A DNA stretch of 64,000 nucleotides from Allosphingosinicella sp. (GCA_036525315.1 DATDAS010000047.1:61497-125496), one strand, 5' to 3'; shown: positions 1-9,677, numbered from the stretch's first letter. The notes: a model not told the origin generated them from the letters alone. Numbers and translations: made by a program.

Positions 1-256
1 GAAAAGCGCGTAGTGTGGAAGCGGCTCCGCTTCCGCTGCCGGACTGGACGACCGCCTCAGCGCCGAGGAATGGGCCCGGCGCCGGGAAGCGCAGGTCCGC
101 GAAAGGCAGGGCTGATAGCCAAGGGCGACGACGCGAGCGCGAAGGAGCACAGGGCGTTCGGGATTAGGCGACAAAACGATAGAGGGAGACACATCTCAGG
201 CCGCCGCTTCGAGCGGCATGAACCTCTTTAGATATTGATTTATAAAGGAATCGTCC

Positions 257-283
257 TGCAACAAAATTGCTCATTTTGTTGCA
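257..283. promoter_or_regulatory. Perfect inverted repeat TGCAACAAAAT-N5-ATTTTGTTGCA; candidate operator or hairpin upstream of the three-gene cassette
   Basis: 257-267 is the exact reverse complement of 273-283. It lies in the most AT-rich stretch of the window (about 225-300), about 280 bp upstream of ORF 564. Function cannot be shown from sequence. Confidence 0.35.
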
Positions 284-563
284 TCGACAGTCTAATCCAG
301 AGGGAACGCCTGCTTCCGGGAACCGGCATAATCGGTGCGGACGACCGGCATTGGCGCAAAGCGGCTGCTCCACGCAAGGACCGCATCTGGCCGATTGCAG
401 TCCGACCGCTTTTAAGCAGAGACGTAATAAAGCGGCCACTCGAACCGGCCAACTGGTCCAAGCCAATTTCGACATCGAAAACCTTGTGGAATCATGCTCG
501 AACGTGTGACACGTGCTTTACGGACACTAAGCTGAAACTGATTTCTCTCGCGCGGACTCTGTA

Positions 564-3065
564 TTGCAACCTTTCGATATCGTGCAGGGAGCTCAATCGC
601 CGGCGAGCCCGCGGGTGTTCGTCATTGGCGCTTTCGACAGCCGTATCACTTTCTATGCTCAGCAGGTTCGCGCGCTCGAACTGATATACGCGCTGCGAAA
701 CCAAGCCATTTTGCAGGATACCCATCGTGTTGCAGTAGTTGGCGCCGGAGCCGCAGGCCTGAGCGCTGCCGCTGCGATCGCCCTGCTGTCCAAGGCCAGG
801 GTCGATCTATTTGAGCGTTCCGACGAAGTGCTTCCTCTCCAGCGCGCAAGCCAGCTGCGCCACCTCGATCCGCACATCTATGCGTGGCCGGCGATTGGCA
901 GCGACGATCCTGCGGCCGAACTGCCGATGCTGGACTGGACTGCAGGCCCGGCTGCCACGGTCCGGCAGGACGTGAAGCTGGAGTTCGAGAATGTCGTGGG
1001 ACTGTGCCAGCAGCGAATTCGCGTCAATTTGCGACACGAGGTCACGGAATCCGGTCTTGCAGGCGGCAAACCTCAGCTGATTTTCAGGCGCGATCCGCAC
1101 GTGGGAGAGGCTGGTGACGGTCCCGATCTGAGGGTGTCAGCGCAGGCCACCTTCGACCTCGTCATTCTCGCATTCGGATTTGGCCTTGAGCCTGCCCATA
1201 CGCCGGCCGGCGCAACCGTAAGCTACTGGAGCGATGCAAGCGTGCCCATGGTCGAATTCCAGGGCCGGGCGACTCCGCGCTTTCTGGTAAGCGGCAACGG
1301 GGACGGCGGTCTTATCGATCTCGTGGCCGCTGCAAGCGCAGACTTCGACCACGCGGGCATGATCCAGCAGATAGCAAATCAGGCTGGTATCGACGCAATA
1401 TTCGAGCGACTGGAGGCCATCGACAGGGAGGCCCAAGCGGCGTTTGATGTTGGCAACGGCTTTGATTTCCCGGCTGCTTACGATGCGAGCATTCGGGATG
1501 ATCTGGAGCAGCTGGGGCTGTTTGAACTGGTTACGAACCGGCTCCGCCCTGGTGTCAGACTCACGCTTCAGACACTGGGCCCGGAGGCATTCACTATTCA
1601 GACGGCCAGGCTCAACCGCCTTGCAGCCTATCTCGTCCTGCGCGCCTGCGAAACGAAGGCCCAGACCGAATTCACCCATATTCATGGGAATGATCTGACA
1701 CCGACTGCGGCGCCCTTCCCTCAACCTTACCCGGCCCCGCTCTGGTTCCAGTGCAGCGGCACGACCTTTGGAGTCGATGCTGCAATCATTCGCCACGGTC
1801 CGGATCGGTCGGGCGCGCGCCTACCATTCACGGAGCTGCTCGGAGATTATGCCACCACGCATAAGGCCTGGTTGAAGCTCCACGGCGAAGCCGTCAGGAT
1901 TCCAGCGATTTCACCGGCTGCCAGGGAAGCACTTGTGATCGCGGCCCGGCAGGCAGGGCTACCGCTACCGCTCTATCAGCAACGCCAGCTCCAGTTGCAG
2001 CAGCCGCGACGTATCAGAGTGCAACCGGCCGGTGCTGTCCTCAGATGGTCCGGCGATCTTGCGTCCGCTGCGATAGGGGACCTCTGGGCGACGCCAACGC
2101 CGCCGGTCAACATTTACGTTCCCTCTCCTCCCGACCAGCTGGGCGACGTCGCTGGCGCGATTGTCCGCTTCGCATTGCATTCCAGCCGAGCGACTCTGAT
2201 CGCCAGTCCAGGTGACTGGCGCACATTCATGGATCCGCTGACTACGGGATCGGCGCATGCCGAGCATCTGGCCCCCCCGGCGATCGAGGCCGGGGCACCG
2301 GCTGGCGCCACGCAAAATGTCGAACAGAGCGGCTCGGCTAACTTTGCTTTGGTGCTGCACGGTGCGTTGAACGCCTGGGTACTTAATGCGGCGAACCAGA
2401 CATTAGGTGATTTCATCGGAACCGGACGTGACCCGGGCCAAACAATCGGCTTCCCCGCTGCCCCCGATCTTCGGGTTCGCATGGGTGAGATCTGGGCTGG
2501 GTGGCATGCGCAACTGGCCGCGACGCCGGAACTTCTGGATCGCTTCCTTCGCCTAATGGTGTGCGCCGAAGATCGCGATGAAGGGCTCGACGAGGCGCGT
2601 GTTCTGATCGGACCTCGCAAACTTCCTTCGATCACCAGGGGGATAGCCGCGGCGCTGGCGGTTGCCTCGGCCTGGCCTGACACGCTGCCCCATGACGTTC
2701 GACCCGGCAATCTCTCCCGAATGCCTGGCGGAGGCGAGCAGAAATGCGGTCATGTCTGTGGTGCGGAACGCATCGCGCGCGAGCCCACGGCAATCGCCGC
2801 CGCCACATTCATGTGGAGAACGCACTTCGTCATCCTGTCTCAGCTGACGACGCCGATCGCCATCGCGGAACAGGCGGAGGTGGGAATCGGCGAAATCGGG
2901 CAGGCGCAACCCGGACTCGATGAGGCCACTGGCGCCGGCGGCCTGTTTCTGACGCTGGACGCCGCCTTCCGCACGGCCGCTGGCACGGGGCTGGCTGACC
3001 TCATCGCCCTTCTGAACACCGCGGAAACAGATTATTTTCAGCGGCTCGCCGCTGCAGCAGCCTAG
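564..3065 (+). CDS. Large protein with a two-dinucleotide-binding-domain flavoprotein-like N-terminus and a C-terminal ~380 aa with no recognisable motif; candidate effector (LmuA-like position) of a Lamassu/ABC-3C-type system
   Basis: 833-aa ORF. It carries VAVVGAGAAGLSAAAAIALLSKARVDLFER (GxGxxG followed by an acidic residue, a classic FAD/NAD(P) beta-alpha-beta motif), FDLVILAFGFG (an ATG-like motif) and FLVSGNGDGGLIDLV (a second GxGxxG-like motif). The stop TAG 3063-3065 overlaps the SD of the next gene. The start is uncertain: TTG 564, GTG 582 and GTG 615 are all possible. Confidence 0.7.
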   Translation: MQPFDIVQGAQSPASPRVFVIGAFDSRITFYAQQVRALELIYALRNQAILQDTHRVAVVGAGAAGLSAAAAIALLSKARVDLFERSDEVLPLQRASQLRHLDPHIYAWPAIGSDDPAAELPMLDWTAGPAATVRQDVKLEFENVVGLCQQRIRVNLRHEVTESGLAGGKPQLIFRRDPHVGEAGDGPDLRVSAQATFDLVILAFGFGLEPAHTPAGATVSYWSDASVPMVEFQGRATPRFLVSGNGDGGLIDLVAAASADFDHAGMIQQIANQAGIDAIFERLEAIDREAQAAFDVGNGFDFPAAYDASIRDDLEQLGLFELVTNRLRPGVRLTLQTLGPEAFTIQTARLNRLAAYLVLRACETKAQTEFTHIHGNDLTPTAAPFPQPYPAPLWFQCSGTTFGVDAAIIRHGPDRSGARLPFTELLGDYATTHKAWLKLHGEAVRIPAISPAAREALVIAARQAGLPLPLYQQRQLQLQQPRRIRVQPAGAVLRWSGDLASAAIGDLWATPTPPVNIYVPSPPDQLGDVAGAIVRFALHSSRATLIASPGDWRTFMDPLTTGSAHAEHLAPPAIEAGAPAGATQNVEQSGSANFALVLHGALNAWVLNAANQTLGDFIGTGRDPGQTIGFPAAPDLRVRMGEIWAGWHAQLAATPELLDRFLRLMVCAEDRDEGLDEARVLIGPRKLPSITRGIAAALAVASAWPDTLPHDVRPGNLSRMPGGGEQKCGHVCGAERIAREPTAIAAATFMWRTHFVILSQLTTPIAIAEQAEVGIGEIGQAQPGLDEATGAGGLFLTLDAAFRTAAGTGLADLIALLNTAETDYFQRLAAAAA

Positions 3066-3074
3066 GAGGATCCT

Positions 3075-3779
3075 ATGAGCGTCGATGCCCTGACGCCCTC
3101 GGAGGCGATACTGGAAGAACTTTTCGAGCGACTGGCTTGCGTGGCGAAGAAGCTTGATCTGGTGGTCGCCGACGCCTCAGCGCTGACGGAGAATGTTTTT
3201 CTGGGCGGCGGGGGGAGCGAGGTTGCACGACTGTCCCCGAGCGAGCTGCCGAGCCCTGTTCGTGCAATCAGTATCGGACGATACACCGTAATGCTGGGAA
3301 TGCTGCCGGAACAGCCGAGCCTGGAAGCGGTCACGGAAACTCTCAGGCGATTCCGCAACCAGTGCGTGATCGCGCGTTCCTATCTGTCGCCGGGCGAAGT
3401 CCTCGACCTTAATGGGATTCTGGTCGGCCCCAGAGGAAGCGAGCCGGTTGATGACTGGCGCCCTCTGGCGCTTCTGGTGGAGCGCGACGACAAGGTGGCA
3501 CGAAAATTCGCCTGGCTCAGACCCACCGACCCGGCGGCGGATGACGCAAGTTTCGAGGATCTGATCAAGCGGACCTTTATGGCCCGCCCATGGGTCAATG
3601 AGTCCACCTTCACCATGGCAGCGCTCGACAATCTCAACCGGGCGGCCGCCATGTGGGATGCATCGGTCCCTCGGGGCACCGTCGATGAATGGGTAAACCT
3701 CAGCCTGAACCCTCCCGAAGACGCCGATACGCTGGTGGACAGGCTGGTCGGTACTTGGGCACGGAGGGGGCAGGCATGA
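3075..3779 (+). CDS. Small (234 aa) protein with no recognisable motif; candidate middle component (LmuC / ABC-3C MC position)
   Basis: ATG 3075 is preceded by AGGAGGA (3064-3070). Its stop overlaps the next start as ATGA (3776-3779). The role is assigned from position and size only, with no motif support. Confidence 0.65.
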   Translation: MSVDALTPSEAILEELFERLACVAKKLDLVVADASALTENVFLGGGGSEVARLSPSELPSPVRAISIGRYTVMLGMLPEQPSLEAVTETLRRFRNQCVIARSYLSPGEVLDLNGILVGPRGSEPVDDWRPLALLVERDDKVARKFAWLRPTDPAADDASFEDLIKRTFMARPWVNESTFTMAALDNLNRAAAMWDASVPRGTVDEWVNLSLNPPEDADTLVDRLVGTWARRGQA

Positions 3780-6700
3780 GCGAGCTGTTCCTCAATTCTG
3801 TCCTCATCAAGGACTTCCGCACTTTCGGAAACTTCGAAGCCGAGATCGTGCCGGCTCCCGGACTCACGCTTCTTGTGGGGACCAACGGCTTGGGCAAGAG
3901 CAACTTTTTCGATGCGCTCGAATGGGGGCTGACCGGACAGGTCAGGCGTTTCAAGCGTCATATGGGCTCCGTAGACGAGGGACGATATCTCACGCGCAGG
4001 ACCCTGAAAGCGGGAAGCCATAGTGTCGCTCTGACTTTCAGCGACAACTCTCTACTGCAGCGCAGTCGCTCGGTGAAACCTACCTCGGCAAAAGTGGTCG
4101 AGTTGCTCAAAAGCCCGGAATGGACGGCTCCGATCGAAGATATCGGGACCTATCTGGCCTTCACGCATTTTCTCGGGCAGGCATCGGAGCAACGCTTCAC
4201 CAGTCGCGACCGGAACGAGCAATGGGCCTCGCTGCGAGGACCAAGTGGGATCGACCGACTTGACGAAGTCCGGAAGGGCCTGCGCGGGCGCGCGACCGAA
4301 ATGGCGTTCAACCGGCGCATCAGGCAGGAAAAAGAAGCGATTGCGGAGATCCAGCGGCTGATTGCGGAGTGGGACGCCTGGACCTCTCGCCTCAGGCTGC
4401 TGCGCGATGCCGCGGAAGCAACCGGTGTGATCTCTTCCGGTGATTTCGATCAACGCCTGTCGTCGCTAATCAGAAATGTGCGCGAGCGCGCACCCGAGTA
4501 TCGCGACCAACCAGACGCTGGTCTTCCCGATCGATTGACTGGGGTAATCGCAGCCCTGGACTCGCTTCAGCAGCAAAACACCGAACGGACCAGCCTCGTC
4601 CACTCGCTTGAGGATCTGCCCCAGCGATATGCCGTGCATCTGGCCGGGATCGGCTCCGAGGACCCAGCATATGCGGCTGCAGTCTCGGCTGCGGGATCGG
4701 CGAAGGATGAGCTGACCGCTCGTGCTCAGGCGGCGGCCGAAGCTCGCGAAGCGCTGGAGCACGCAACTCGCAATGTTGCGGCCCTGGAAACTGAAATAAC
4801 CCGCCTCGACACCGCACGCTCGGATCTCGAGGCGGCAAACGCGGCCGCAGCTCAGATCGAGCAGGCGAATAAGGAGCTTTCTCAGGCGACTGAACGGGCC
4901 TCGCAACTCCAGGGCGACCTTGGCTCGGCAAGGATTGAGATGGAGGGCGTAGACGAGCGCGCTGTGACCCTGGCGAACCTCACCGCGTCTCTCGCAGAGG
5001 CGCAGAGGATTTCGAAACTCGCCAGTCGCTTGTCCGCACTGAGGAGCAAGGCTGCCGCCAGCGCAGCACTCCGGTCCGAGGCCGAGGAGCGCGCCCGGAC
5101 AGCACAAGAGCTGCTGGCAGCGTTAATCCCCGAGAAGTCTGCATTTTCTGCGAGCCTTGAAGCCGCACGAGCTTCGCTGGAAGCAGTGCAGGTCCACGCG
5201 TCGGAAATGGCGTCCGCGCTTGCCGCCATCGCAGCCCATATCCACGAGAGCGACACCGATTGTCCGGTTTGCCGCACGTCATTCCAAAGGGGCCAGCTGA
5301 AGCGCCTCGCCGAAGAGACGGTCAATGTCCAGAATCCCGCGCTGGCGATGGCGACCGCGCGGGTCGCGGAACTGGAAGGGACGATTTCGCAGCAGACACA
5401 GCGGATCGTCGAGGCAGAAGAGCTTGTGCGGGCCGGGGAGGAAGTGGCCCGCACAGCGGAAGCAGACCAGCGCGAGCTGCAGGACGTCGAGCTCCAGATT
5501 CGAGCCACACTGTCGCCTGATGTGGCTGACCTGGAGACTGCCGTCGCCGCCAGCCTGAGAAGAGCGTCTGAGGCGGTTGCCGCAGCCCGAAGCGCGGATG
5601 CCCAGGATCAGGCCCGGAAATCTGAGCTGGCCTCACGGATCGAAACGCTTCAACAGGACATCGCGCGCGCAAACGAGGCGAATGAAAACCTGCGCGAACA
5701 TCTTACGGCGTTGGCCTCCTCGCGAAGGTCGGCCCTGGAGCGACTGACGGCGCTGGGATATTCGAATGCCGAGGCCCAGCGCATCAGTGCTGATCTCGCA
5801 TCTGCGAGAACCCGCCATTCGGAGGCGGTCGCTAGAAAAGCTGACGACGAGCTACTGCAGCGCCAGGCAGCAGAGGCGGAAAAAAACGCAAAAACACGGA
5901 AAGAACAGGCAGACGAGGCATTGCGCCGGCTGGTCGCCGAACGCGAAGCGGCTCGCGCTGCGGCAGATGCGCTGCGGAAGCGATGGAATCAGGCGGGTCT
6001 GGATGGCGCTCCGGACGCAGCGGCGCTGGAGGCCGGACTGTCACAGCTTCAGGAAGTATCGCGTGACATTCAGCGACTCGGCACTGAGCGAACGACTTTG
6101 GGCGCTGCCTACGAGGCGCTGGTCCGTAGCCGTGATCTGCAGGAGCTGACGGCCCAGATGCAGAAGGTGGGTGGCGCCGAAGCGGCGGATGCGCCGGAGC
6201 GGCATGCTCAGAGCCTGCGAGATCGTCTTGAAGTGGCCAGTCAGAAGCTTCGCACCAGCGAGGAAGCGCATACGGCAGCGAGCGGGCTTGCTGACAGGCT
6301 TCAGGAGGAAGCGAGGAACTTCTCGACGCAATTCCTGACCCCTCTGAACGGGCTCATCGACGATTTCAACGAAGCGCTCCTCAGCACACCCGGCGAATCT
6401 GTTCATCTCAACGCAGCACATCACAAGGACCGGACACAGTTCGACATGGGTCTCCGCTACCGGGACGAAATCGACGATATCCTGTTCGACACCAACCTTC
6501 CTCCGTCCGTTGTACTCAGCGAAGGACAGCTCGCGGCCAATGGCTTCAGCATTCTGTGCTCGGCGAGCACGGCATATCCCTGGTCGCGCTGGCGTGCCCT
6601 TCTGATGGATGACCCTCTCCAGCATAACGACATCATTCACGCCGCTGCGTTCGTCGACCTGATGCGCAATCTGGTCGAGCTGCAGAAATATCAGCTCATC

Positions 6701-6880
6701 ATGTCGAGCCATGATCGTGGCGAGACAGAGTTCATCCGGCGCAAGTTTGATGCGGCAGGCCTCCCTTGTTCAGTGGTGACGCTTACCGCACCTTCGCGCT
6801 CAGGGGTTCGATACTTGGCGCCCGACCATAATCGCGCGGCAGAAGAGGCACTCGCACAGAGACTGGCGCAGTCGGCTTAG
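3776..6880 (+). CDS. Rad50/SMC-type ABC ATPase with a long coiled coil and central CxxC hook (LmuB / ABC-3C ATPase-like)
   Basis: Walker A is LLVGTNGLGKSNFFDALEWGLTG (GTNGLGKS at 3878-3901). About 650 aa of A/E/R/L/Q-rich coiled-coil-like sequence follow, with CPVC at 5261-5272 near the middle. The C-terminus has the signature-like LSEGQ, Walker B ALLMDDP and H-loop MSSHD. ATG 3776 (GGAGGGGG upstream, ATGA overlap) is preferred over the longest-ORF start at 3689. Confidence 0.85.
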   Translation: MSELFLNSVLIKDFRTFGNFEAEIVPAPGLTLLVGTNGLGKSNFFDALEWGLTGQVRRFKRHMGSVDEGRYLTRRTLKAGSHSVALTFSDNSLLQRSRSVKPTSAKVVELLKSPEWTAPIEDIGTYLAFTHFLGQASEQRFTSRDRNEQWASLRGPSGIDRLDEVRKGLRGRATEMAFNRRIRQEKEAIAEIQRLIAEWDAWTSRLRLLRDAAEATGVISSGDFDQRLSSLIRNVRERAPEYRDQPDAGLPDRLTGVIAALDSLQQQNTERTSLVHSLEDLPQRYAVHLAGIGSEDPAYAAAVSAAGSAKDELTARAQAAAEAREALEHATRNVAALETEITRLDTARSDLEAANAAAAQIEQANKELSQATERASQLQGDLGSARIEMEGVDERAVTLANLTASLAEAQRISKLASRLSALRSKAAASAALRSEAEERARTAQELLAALIPEKSAFSASLEAARASLEAVQVHASEMASALAAIAAHIHESDTDCPVCRTSFQRGQLKRLAEETVNVQNPALAMATARVAELEGTISQQTQRIVEAEELVRAGEEVARTAEADQRELQDVELQIRATLSPDVADLETAVAASLRRASEAVAAARSADAQDQARKSELASRIETLQQDIARANEANENLREHLTALASSRRSALERLTALGYSNAEAQRISADLASARTRHSEAVARKADDELLQRQAAEAEKNAKTRKEQADEALRRLVAEREAARAAADALRKRWNQAGLDGAPDAAALEAGLSQLQEVSRDIQRLGTERTTLGAAYEALVRSRDLQELTAQMQKVGGAEAADAPERHAQSLRDRLEVASQKLRTSEEAHTAASGLADRLQEEARNFSTQFLTPLNGLIDDFNEALLSTPGESVHLNAAHHKDRTQFDMGLRYRDEIDDILFDTNLPPSVVLSEGQLAANGFSILCSASTAYPWSRWRALLMDDPLQHNDIIHAAAFVDLMRNLVELQKYQLIMSSHDRGETEFIRRKFDAAGLPCSVVTLTAPSRSGVRYLAPDHNRAAEEALAQRLAQSA

Positions 6881-7440
6881 GGATGACGGTTTGGATGTGC
6901 TTGCGGGCCAATGCCTTCCGCGACCTTCGCACGGACAAAGGATTGATTGCTCCCAGTGTCTGATTACGTCACCCGCCGGCTGACCCATCACGACGAGGAA
7001 GAGTAGGCAGCCCTCGTCCCGGAAAGCGAGCTGCCGCATCAACTACTGCCGCTGGTAACAGTCGCGCGCGGCGCGCCTCGTCCAGCTGCGTAGCGCTGGC
7101 TGCTCGCTTTGAGGAGCGGTCGGCCACTGATGCGGGCTTACGGGCCTCTCGCATTGGATTTTTGCTAGCGAATGCGCATGCCGTTCTCGTCGGCCCAGAA
7201 TCGCGCCGCCAGCTGACCGACGGCTTATGGGGTCGTTGGCCGACAGACCGAACGGCGACAATGGGCGCAATGAGACATCCCATGCCGTGGCGCGAGCCCT
7301 CAAATGACCGATCTCTGAGATCGCCAAGCTTTTGACGTTTTGGGACCCTTCAAAGTCGCCGAACAGCCGCCTTGCTTGAAGAAGCGCGGCCCCTCCCTTA
7401 ATGACCCCCTGCTGCAATGCAGCGCAGCCAGGGTCGCATC

Positions 7441-9444
7441 ATGTCGGAAATGTTCAGGATCACTCTCCCCGACGGCTCGGTTCGCGAGGTCGAGCCGGGG
7501 ACGACTCCCGCCGACATAGCGGCGGCGATCGGGCCGGGCCTGGCCAAGGCCGCGCTCGCGGCGCGGGTCGACGGCGAGGTGCGCGACCTGATGCGGCCGC
7601 TCGAGGGCGATTCGGAGCTTGCGCTGATCACGTCGCGCGACGAGGCCGACGCGCTCGAGCTCGCGCGCCACGATTATGCCCACGTCCTCGCCGAGGCGGT
7701 CCAGAACCTGTTCCCCGGCACCCAGATCACCTTCGGCCCGGCGACCGAGGAGGGATTCTATTACGATTTCGCGCCGACCGCCGAGCGGGGCCCCTTCACC
7801 GACGAGGACCTTCCGGCGATCGAGGACGAGATGCGGCGAATCATCGCGGCCGACCAGCCGCTGATCCGCGAAGTGTGGTCGCGCGAGCAGGTCCGCGATT
7901 TCTTCGAGAAGCAGGGCGAGGCCTTCAAGGCCGAATGGGTGATGGAGCTTCCCGCCGACGAGCAGATCAGCATGTACCGTTCGGGCGGCTGGCTCGACCT
8001 GTGCCGGGGCCCGCACCTCGTCTCGACCGGCAAGCTCGATCCGCAGGCCTTCAAGCTGACCCGCGTGTCGGGCGCCTATTGGCGCGGCGACCAGAAGAAC
8101 GCGATGCTGAGCCGGATCTACGGCACCGGCTGGCTCAACCGGAAGCAGCTCGACGCCCATCTCCTCCGGCTCGAGGAAGCGGCGAAGCGCGACCATCGCA
8201 AGATCGGCCAGGAGATGGACCTGTTCCACCTCCAGGCCGAGGCCCAGGGCTCGGTCTTCTGGCACGCCAAGGGCTATGCGATCTGGCGCGAGCTCGAGGC
8301 CTATATGCGCCGCCGCCTCGATTCTGCCGGCTATGACGAGGTGAAGACCCCGCAGCTGATGGACGCGCGGCTGTGGGAGGCGTCGGGCCATTGGGGCAAG
8401 TATCGCGAGAACATGTTCGTCGTGCCCGACGAGGTACCGAATACCGAGGAGGGCCAGCCCGTCTTCACCGGCGAGGGCGATCTGATGGCCCTGAAGCCGA
8501 TGAACTGCCCGGCGCACGTCCAGATCTTCCGCCAGGGGATCAAATCGTACCGCGACCTGCCGCTGCGCCTGGCCGAGTTCGGCTGCTGCCACCGCAACGA
8601 GCCGCACGGCGCGCTCCACGGAATCATGCGGGTCCGCCAGTTCACCCAGGACGACGCCCACATCTTCTGCCGCGAGGACCAACTGGTCGAGGAGGTCCGG
8701 ATCTTCTGCGACCTGCTCGATTCGGTCTACCGCGAGCTCGGCTTCGAGACCTATGCGATCAAGCTCGCGCTTCGCCCCGAGCAGCGTTTCGGGACCGACG
8801 CGCAATGGGACAAGGCCGAGCAGGACCTTCGCGAGGCCGTCCATGCCGCCGGGCGGGCCACGCCCGAGTTCGGCTGGGAGGAATTGCCGGGCGAAGGGGC
8901 CTTCTATTCCCCCAAGCTCGAATTCCATTTGACCGACGCGATCGGGCGGACCTGGCAGTGCGGAACGATCCAGGCCGATTACGTTCTCCCCGACCGGCTC
9001 GACGCCTCCTATGTCGGCGCCGACGGCGAGCGCCACCGGCCGGTCATGCTCCACCGGGCGATCCTCGGCACGTTCGAGCGGTTCATCGGAATCCTGATCG
9101 AGCATCATGCCGGCCGCTTTCCGCTGTGGCTCGCGCCGGTCCAGGCGGTGGTCGCGACGATCGTCTCGGAGGCGGATTCCTATGCCAATGAGGTCGCCGC
9201 GCGGCTCCGTGCGGCGGGCATCCGGACCGAGGCCGACCTGCGCAACGAGAAGATCAACTACAAGGTGCGCGAGCACAGCCTCGCCAAGGTCCCCTATCTG
9301 CTCGTGCTCGGAAAGCGCGAGGCCGAGGAGGGCAATGTGGCGCTCCGCCCGCTCGGCGCCGACGCCCGGCAGGAGGTGCTTCCGATCGACTCGCTGGTCG
9401 AGAGGCTGGCCGCCGAGGCGCTCGCGCCCGACCTTCGGAGCTGA
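7441..9444 (+). CDS. thrS: Threonine--tRNA ligase
   Basis: N-terminal TGS-like [14 protein letters not shown]. Class II core includes [50 protein letters not shown] and [10 protein letters not shown], followed by an anticodon-binding C-terminus. ATG 7441 was chosen inside ORF 7417-9444. Confidence 0.97.
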
Positions 9445-9677
9445 TTGCGAGCAAGGTTTCCGGCGGCGGATCGGCCACAGGCGCTGCACAAAAGTCGCCG
9501 CGGCGGGCGCCGCGCCTTTCCTTCGCGCCTATGAATCACTAGATCGGCGACGTGATTTCGGAATCACGCCCGCCGCTTCGGAAATTCGCTGTCGCGTCGT
9601 TGAAGCCAAAAACCATTATCCACTTTTTGGCGCGATGCTTTATGTGAGGCCGGAACGGCATCCACTCAGGAGAAGAG

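Follow-up and report, generated by a model that had tools for sequence, protein, structure and literature searches.

The 64,000-nt stretch of Allosphingosinicella sp. DNA that we analysed (GCA_036525315.1, DATDAS010000047.1:61497-125496; hereafter the window) harbours at positions 389-7268 a self-contained long Lamassu (ABC-three component, ABC-3C) of the flavin-containing monooxygenase (FMO) effector subtype, as shown by the family membership of its three genes and by their intact motifs. All three lie on the plus strand, i.e., lmuA (564-3065, 833 aa, TTG start), lmuC (3075-3779, 234 aa, a middle component of the MComp1 type) and lmuB (3776-6880, 1034 aa from ATG 3776, an ABC ATPase that resembles Rad50/SMC proteins and is of long Lamassu type). 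As an explanation of the whole, we regard it as likely that this is an acquired long Lamassu-FMO cassette from which the effector LmuA would be released upon sensing, with flavin-dependent abortive infection as the outcome.

Each of the three proteins is covered nearly end to end by the respective PADLOC model. LmuA aligns with aa 1-831 to positions 2-820 of the 827 positions of PDLC03858 (E-value 3e-279), LmuC with aa 9-233 to positions 6-229 of 230 of PDLC03876 (3.6e-82), and LmuB with aa 1-1033 to positions 1-1034 of 1035 of PDLC03868 (1029 bits, E-value 0). Pfam further identifies the ABC-3C CTD2 adaptor domain in LmuA (aa 493-817, nt 2040-3014, 2e-62), MComp1 (ABC-3C Middle Component 1) in LmuC (2.8e-8), and AAA_23, SMC_N as well as a weak Rad50_zn_hook match (aa 482-514) in LmuB. 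The profiles thus bear out the original prediction, which had placed the trio within Lamassu/ABC-3C from the sequence alone, but not its statement that the second gene is free of motifs, given the end-to-end LmuC match and the MComp1 hit.

The coupling of the open reading frames (ORFs) was found exactly as predicted. The stop codon TAG of lmuA (3063-3065) sits inside AGGAGGA (3064-3070), a Shine-Dalgarno sequence 4 nt upstream of lmuC, and lies 9 nt before the lmuC ATG at 3075. lmuC and lmuB overlap in ATGA (3776-3779), which is preceded by GGAGGGGG. The order lmuA-lmuC-lmuB, i.e., the effector-middle-ATPase arrangement expected of Lamassu, is kept here and in all related loci with enough contig, and a clustering of flanking genes revealed no further family common to more than 4 of the 33 loci. 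The unit therefore consists of the three genes alone. A longer version of the third gene (ATG 3689, 1063 aa) was also considered and is unsupported, since the LmuB profile alignment given above starts at ATG 3776.

The motifs that had been read from the third gene are all in place. LmuB shows Walker A GTNGLGKS with K41 (aa 35-42, nt 3878-3901), a zinc hook with a single CxxC (C496-P-V-C499, nt 5261-5272) at the coiled-coil apex, the signature LSEGQ (aa 914-918, nt 6515-6529), a deviant Walker B LLMDD (nt 6599-6613, within LLMDDP, aa 942-947) and the H-loop H979 (nt 6710-6712, within SSHD, aa 977-980). Conservation was assessed with 20 homologues whose identity spans 21-91% (35-38% for 18 of them). 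Walker A, Q-loop, CPVC, signature, Walker B and H-loop are each at least 95% conserved, and H488 and D493 are conserved alongside the CxxC. The about 650 aa between the motifs show only 23-33% conservation, as expected of a stretch that reads as coiled coil.

Long Lamassu systems are characterised by an hhhhDD Walker B, exactly one CxxC, an LmuB of about 800 aa on average, and a longer LmuC and C-terminal domain (CTD; Haudiquet et al. 2025). Every sequence-level feature that defines them is present, i.e., hhhhDD, one CxxC, a 1034-aa LmuB, a 234-aa LmuC and a CTD2 of about 340 aa, together with the general Lamassu/ABC-3C layout of an SMC/Rad50-like LmuB, an LmuA that joins effector and adaptor, and an LmuC in between. 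Compared to the FMO subtype of long Lamassu, with which it shares the three full-length families, gene order, hhhhDD, single CxxC, long coiled coil and effector domain, the cassette shows no structural difference; what differs is the host, the chromosomal context and an LmuB above the average length. Short Lamassu systems (Vibrio cholerae DdmABC/LmuACB-Cap4 and Bacillus LmuAB; cryo-EM 2025) likewise combine an effector-CTD protein, a small middle component and an SMC-like ATPase, and by analogy the logic may be the same, i.e., an effector held inactive and freed upon sensing of DNA ends. They differ in their Cap4 nuclease effector, an LmuB of about 600 aa, a Walker B of the form hhhhD[QSTE], and in their LmuC/CTD families (MC3 versus MComp1/CTD2 in the window).

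The subtype as such has already been catalogued. Monooxygenase LmuA proteins were listed by Millman et al. 2022, and the FMO effector was reported as specific to long Lamassu, for which a hydrolase-protease system is the only validated one (Haudiquet et al. 2025). This agrees with the statement in the original prediction that an FMO class is listed on purely bioinformatic grounds. Since dedicated full-length PADLOC models exist for the subtype and the RefSeq label is already 'ABC-three component system protein', we do not regard the system itself as a discovery. That is, the window locus is one more instance and its value lies in the effector, the chemistry of which is what is new to learn, and not in the system type. 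What we add is how broad the effector family is, together with its fusions to STAND NTPases, its conserved core, and a defence hotspot upstream of thrS.

The cassette is accessory, patchy, mobile and of foreign origin, i.e., it is not part of the core genome; patchiness among close relatives had been named as a check, and its outcome is in accordance with the prediction. In a blastn comparison, positions 461-6974 (plus 389-468 and 7119-7268) are 93.6% DNA-identical to the copy that Croceicoccus marinus carries (CP060052, L046), where a MobA/MobL relaxase, recombinases and IS66 lie to one side of it and an exonuclease and N6-methyltransferases to the other. The host's ThrS is 97, 95 and 93% identical to proteins from metagenomic contigs, followed by about 86% identity to Allosphingosinicella (Sphingomicrobiaceae), with no Croceicoccus (Erythrobacteraceae) among the best 120 ThrS matches. 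The host is hence not Croceicoccus but an Allosphingosinicella-like sphingomonad. The foreign origin of the cassette is also reflected in the GC content of third codon positions, which is 0.67-0.71 for the three cassette genes versus 0.88-0.90 for thrS, infC and the TonB-dependent receptor gene. Synonymous divergence (dS) between the window and C. marinus copies is about 0.15. The ratio of non-synonymous to synonymous divergence (dN/dS) is 0.20 for lmuA, 0.18 for lmuC and 0.28 for lmuB (heads 0.11-0.12, coiled coil 0.38), and the values of 0.18-0.28 mean that the cassette genes are real and under purifying selection. Homologues also occur on 27 plasmid records, 21 of which are conjugative, most of them rhizobial.

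The two closest relatives (L047 with 97% and L048 with 95% ThrS identity) have thrS, infC, the TonB receptor gene, glnD and mutS intact downstream and carry different content upstream of thrS, in slots equivalent to window positions ~1-7265. For L047, the slot (4114-8607) contains a type II CBASS (SMODS cyclase, ThiF E1, JAB, Saf_2TM-SAVED) and a phage terminase remnant; for L048 (1-3225), it contains an E2-ntca/E2-Crich pair, a cyclase-like gene and helix-turn-helix genes. The junction is sharp: homology to the core genome starts at window position 7264 (L048) or 7368 (L047), and the match to the C. marinus cassette stops at 7268. The more distantly related L049 has no defence system in the same slot. 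This site ahead of thrS constitutes a defence hotspot, and with Lamassu, CBASS or an E2/cyclase system at one position in near-identical genomes it provides a natural example of such.

These data bear on the question whether the trio could be a housekeeping DNA repair module of the Rad50/SbcC kind with an attached oxidoreductase. The architecture of LmuB is that of Rad50/SMC proteins including the zinc hook, there are weak matches to Rad50, SMC and SbcC profiles, and RefSeq assigns a double-strand-break-repair GO term to a homologue. An ABC head that is interrupted by a long antiparallel coiled coil, itself bearing a CxxC zinc hook, is indeed shared with Rad50-Mre11/SbcCD, and the Rad50 type has been proposed as the ancestor of Lamassu. 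Yet the NCBIfam models for Rad50, SMC and SbcC score the cassette far below their cut-offs, an Mre11/SbcD partner is missing, and Walker B ends in DD instead of DE. Furthermore, the trio is absent from the same locus in the closest relatives, uses foreign codons, has a recently transferred copy in another family and travels on plasmids, i.e., it is accessory and mobile where Rad50-Mre11/SbcCD is core. Genomic context and codon usage effectively refute the repair function, which we thus deem extremely improbable.

A different question is what the cassette is directed against. It might mainly serve competition among mobile elements, i.e., act against plasmids as DdmABC does, or stabilise its carrier element, rather than defend against phages. 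Copies adjoin relaxase and mobilisation genes and IS elements, the 21 conjugative plasmids point in the same direction, no homologue was found in 50,697 phage records, and DdmABC is known to act on plasmids (Millman et al. 2022 among other sources). On the other hand, an anti-plasmid role is compatible with phage defence and does not exclude it, the slot of a close relative holds CBASS, i.e., a classical anti-phage system, and phage restriction has been seen with every Lamassu system tested (Millman et al. 2022; Haudiquet et al. 2025). We therefore see a main role in element competition or stabilisation as rather unlikely.

Within LmuA, aa 1 to about 480 (nt 564-2003) form the FMO-like flavoprotein domain that precedes the CTD2 adaptor. 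In an alignment of 87 LmuA sequences, all 75 family-invariant residues are present in the protein from the window. Two dinucleotide-binding motifs had been predicted for the N-terminus; two GxGxxG motifs do exist, but they start at aa 60 and aa 244 and are hence not both at the extreme N-terminus. The first, G60-A-G62-A-A-G65 (nt 741-758), belongs to a beta-alpha-beta unit of FAD type in which E84 ends beta-2, and is invariant in the 87 LmuA sequences as well as in 111 members of the wider family described below, including 20 STAND fusions. The second, G244-N-G246-D247-G248-G249 (nt 1293-1310), occupies an NAD(P)H-type position; it is directly preceded by EFQGRxxPRFLVS and, further ahead, by an 'ATG'-like strand DLVILAFGFG (aa 198-207), and S243, G244, G246, D247 and G248 are 95-100% conserved across the effector family. 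The spacing of 184 residues between the motifs is the one seen in flavoproteins with two dinucleotide-binding domains, and the overall motif layout is class-B-like. Another conserved stretch of LmuA, VFVIGAFDS (aa 18-26), contains no GxGxxG; speculatively, the strand-helix VFVIGAFDSR (aa 18-27) might replace, via circular permutation, the missing C-terminal 'GD' motif for FAD.

An AlphaFold2 model of LmuA, built from an alignment of 87 homologues, reached a mean predicted local distance difference test score (pLDDT) of 87.9 and a predicted template modelling score of 0.71. We compared its N-terminal ~480 aa with the PDB using Foldseek, and the best matches were class B flavoprotein monooxygenases with E-values of 5e-5 to 8e-4 and probabilities of 0.91-1.00, e.g., pyrrolizidine-alkaloid N-oxygenase, cyclohexanone monooxygenases, SidA, KtzI, trimethylamine monooxygenase, bacterial FMO and SMFMO. 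The class B enzymes reached a probability of 1.00; dihydropyrimidine dehydrogenase chains are likewise found within the top 50, as is one ferredoxin reductase. At the level of the predicted fold, these distant matches favour the claim of an FAD/NAD(P)-dependent oxidoreductase-like effector module. Class B monooxygenases (SMFMO 4a9w/4c5o, mFMO 2xlr, CHMO 3gwf, SidA 6x0i) share with LmuA the order of the GxGxxG motifs and their spacing of about 184 residues. The LmuA domain differs from them by a helical insert of about 65 aa after the second motif and by an extra conserved N-terminal beta-alpha unit (aa 18-46). We regard it as a distinct offshoot of class B monooxygenases and not as a member of the FMO, Baeyer-Villiger (BVMO) or N-hydroxylating (NMO) monooxygenase families.

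Disorder in the LmuA model, with a pLDDT below 50, is confined to aa 767-791 (window positions 2871-2939). This stretch contains at aa 774 a third GxGxxG-like string, GIGEIG, which is not conserved, so that this part is probably a flexible CTD2 loop and not a nucleotide site.

To see where else the effector domain occurs, LmuA aa 1-492 were searched exhaustively against 1.84 billion representative proteins. This yielded 2,214 clusters (50% identity) at an E-value of at most 1e-3, among them 1,673 at 1e-10 or below, and the family extends far beyond Lamassu. For the best 150 clusters we assigned the architecture: 42 carry CTD2, i.e., are of LmuA type, 27 are fused to a P-loop NTPase, 35 have other long extensions, and 46 comprise the domain only or are fragments. 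According to Pfam, the fused NTPases are nSTAND1, NACHT, NB-ARC-like or AAA_16/AAA_22 with TPR or HEAT repeats, and the flavoprotein-like domain is found at either terminus of these STAND/NACHT proteins (e.g., L040 7457-11314 and L045 9911-12415; among proteins P0138-P0264). Further fusions involve ankyrin repeats (P0192) and a Nal1_C protease-like domain (P0167). The N-terminal half of the PADLOC LmuA model matches the STAND fusions with E-values of 1e-92 to 1e-142, and PADLOC v2 finds in them nothing beyond the LmuA model except weak partial matches to mad8, mad2 and OloA. Carriers of STAND fusions that can be named are Sorangium cellulosum, Massilia, Acetobacteraceae and an alphaproteobacterial metagenome-assembled genome, in all of which the annotation is generic. 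Within the literature collection that was searched, no paper on flavoprotein-STAND fusions or on the mechanism of this effector came up.

We compared 111 near-full-length domains, 20 of them from STAND fusions; identity reaches 85-100% at both GxGxxG motifs and at some 35 other residues, among them R27, T29, Q33, Q34, R36, Q93, R99, W108-P109, W125, G205-F-G-x-E209, Y221-W222, D247, D252, H263, N351-R352 and R410. Such invariance across architectures fits a conserved enzyme that is moved as a module between sensors. Bacterial STAND/NACHT (Avs-like) NTPases carry the very same flavoprotein-like domain in the effector position. What differs is the sensor, for which a STAND NTPase bearing TPR, HEAT or ankyrin repeats takes the place of an SMC-like ATPase. 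STAND NTPases activate their effectors by induced oligomerisation or proximity. The same domain in their effector slot therefore supports both a role as toxic module and switching by proximity, and its reuse with the same invariant core constitutes independent comparative support for the former.

We tentatively extend this to the idea that the N-terminal domain of LmuA may represent a large unnamed 'redox death' effector family, i.e., a class B offshoot that, once induced to oligomerise, would kill or arrest the cell by O2- and NAD(P)H-dependent flavin chemistry and would be interchangeable between SMC and STAND/NACHT sensors; in our estimate the idea falls a little short of an even chance. 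The core proposed for this family consists of G22/R27/T29/Q33-Q34/R36, W108-P109, W125, GFGxE (205-209), Y221-W222, SGxGDG (243-248), H263, N351-R352 and R410. All named carriers of the effector domain belong to genera that we take to be aerobic or facultative, which would weakly fit an O2 requirement; this evidence from lifestyle is weak, since proteobacterial sequences served as the starting point of the searches.

The course of events that we propose combines these data with what is known from short Lamassu. By analogy, an LmuB dimer joined at the zinc hook would hold one LmuC and, via CTD2, one LmuA that is monomeric and inactive. Foreign DNA ends or replication intermediates would then, under ATP control, trigger the release of LmuA, which once freed would oligomerise through its C-terminal domain, as in the short systems. 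Fold and conservation suggest that the N-terminal domain binds FAD at the GxGxxG of aa 60 and NAD(P)H at the GxGDGG of aa 244, and proximity or oligomerisation may switch on O2 turnover by the flavoprotein domain. Two routes to the arrest of the cell are conceivable, i.e., uncoupled oxidation of NAD(P)H, leading to cofactor depletion and peroxide, or oxygenation of an essential metabolite or macromolecule. Either would halt the infected cell and thus amount to abortive infection. It is in this sense that we infer a redox killing mechanism for LmuA.

Several observations weigh against this explanation. The assignment as flavoenzyme is made at the fold level only, with target-normalised TM-scores of 0.3-0.53, root mean square deviations of 8-14 A and identities of 10-16%. 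The FMO fingerprint FxGxxxHxxx[YF] and the BVMO fingerprint FxGxxxHxxxW[PD] are absent from the window LmuA and from 87/87 aligned LmuA sequences, and sequence profiles match Pfam, NCBIfam and PDB entries only over the first beta-alpha-beta (Rossmann, aa 50-91). 'FMO' is for these two reasons a fold-level label. In line with this, the Pfam families FMO-like, K_oxygenase and Pyr_redox_3 do not match LmuA, and PDB sequence searches, run for each protein and for the LmuA profile, returned Rossmann-motif or SMC-head matches only and no solved Lamassu chain. For sensing and release, the explanation relies on extrapolation from short Lamassu, which has other LmuC and CTD families. Finally, no promoter-like (sigma-70-like) site was found for the cassette, and the literature search produced no experimental report for any Lamassu-FMO system.

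Given the missing fingerprints and a similarity to known enzymes that is confined to the first Rossmann motif, the flavoprotein-like domain might instead serve, without any catalysis, as a nucleotide or redox sensor or as a scaffold, and the killing would be left to CTD2, which has an invariant patch of its own with a His and a Cys (G729-H730-x-C732), or to LmuB acting on DNA. However, the domain sits where other LmuA proteins have their nuclease, Sir2 or protease effectors, and, being modular, it has also been transferred to STAND NTPases that lack CTD2. Both dinucleotide motifs and many polar residues are invariant in all architectures, as expected for a working enzyme, and CTD2 is common to long Lamassu with other effectors, which suits an adaptor. 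A non-catalytic role thus appears improbable to us, and the flavin-dependent toxic effector remains the explanation that we prefer.

To our knowledge, the characterised Lamassu systems all act by degrading nucleic acids, NAD+, membranes or proteins, and so do nearly all abortive-infection effectors that have been characterised. An effector that depends on flavin, NAD(P)H and O2 would, if true, represent a chemically novel way of cell suicide and, if the redox death idea applies, the first oxygen-dependent effector of abortive infection. It predicts that defence fails without oxygen. For studies of the effector domain, the STAND fusions offer simpler single-protein systems.

Concerning the borders of the cassette, homology to the C. 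marinus copy starts (blastn) with a non-coding leader (389-563, plus strand) that presumably contains the promoter and the 5' untranslated region. At the other end, the 3' flank (6881-7268, plus strand) includes the right junction between island and core genome at ~7264-7268; on the left, the island extends past the first position of the window. Searches for tRNA genes and Rfam families were negative, promoter and terminator signals did not exceed chance, and an integration site or regulatory element could accordingly not be assigned. Upstream of the operon and outside the segment common with C. marinus, there is an AT-rich patch (225-290). It holds a perfect 11-nt inverted repeat, TGCAACAAAAT/ATTTTGTTGCA, at 257-267 and 273-283 with a 5-nt loop, and an overlapping palindrome (234-251). 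The patch may represent an operator, the terminator of the gene before it, or a hairpin resembling oriT. Positions 1-119 encode the 3' end of a plus strand gene (frame 2, ...SAEEWARRREAQVRERQG, then stop). Its C. marinus counterpart is the MobA/MobL relaxase, and the C-termini of the two are unlike.

A DEDD/RNase T-type 3'-5' exonuclease was examined as a possible fourth component. Its gene adjoins the trio in C. marinus (L046, 16700-17599), on the Rhizobium jaguaris plasmid pRCCGE525a (L050, 6863-7837) and in L006 (~8570-9567), i.e., in only 3 of about 50 loci, and we rejected it on this count and on the negative flank clustering. On the same R. jaguaris plasmid, the lmuA homologue (L050, 8977-11474) lies beside IS21 and is annotated as two coding sequences, a 120-aa 'NAD(P)-binding protein' and an 'ABC-three component system protein', which suggests a frameshifted or decaying copy.

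A search of the LmuA model against a viral fold library gave nothing relevant. The only matches (E-value ~1e-4) are BFVD entries A0A0D3MT87 and E0YIZ6 from Lactococcus phages WRP3 and 949, both annotated as 'ribonucleotide diphosphate reductase alpha subunit'; these proteins may be misannotated, or may be flavoproteins.

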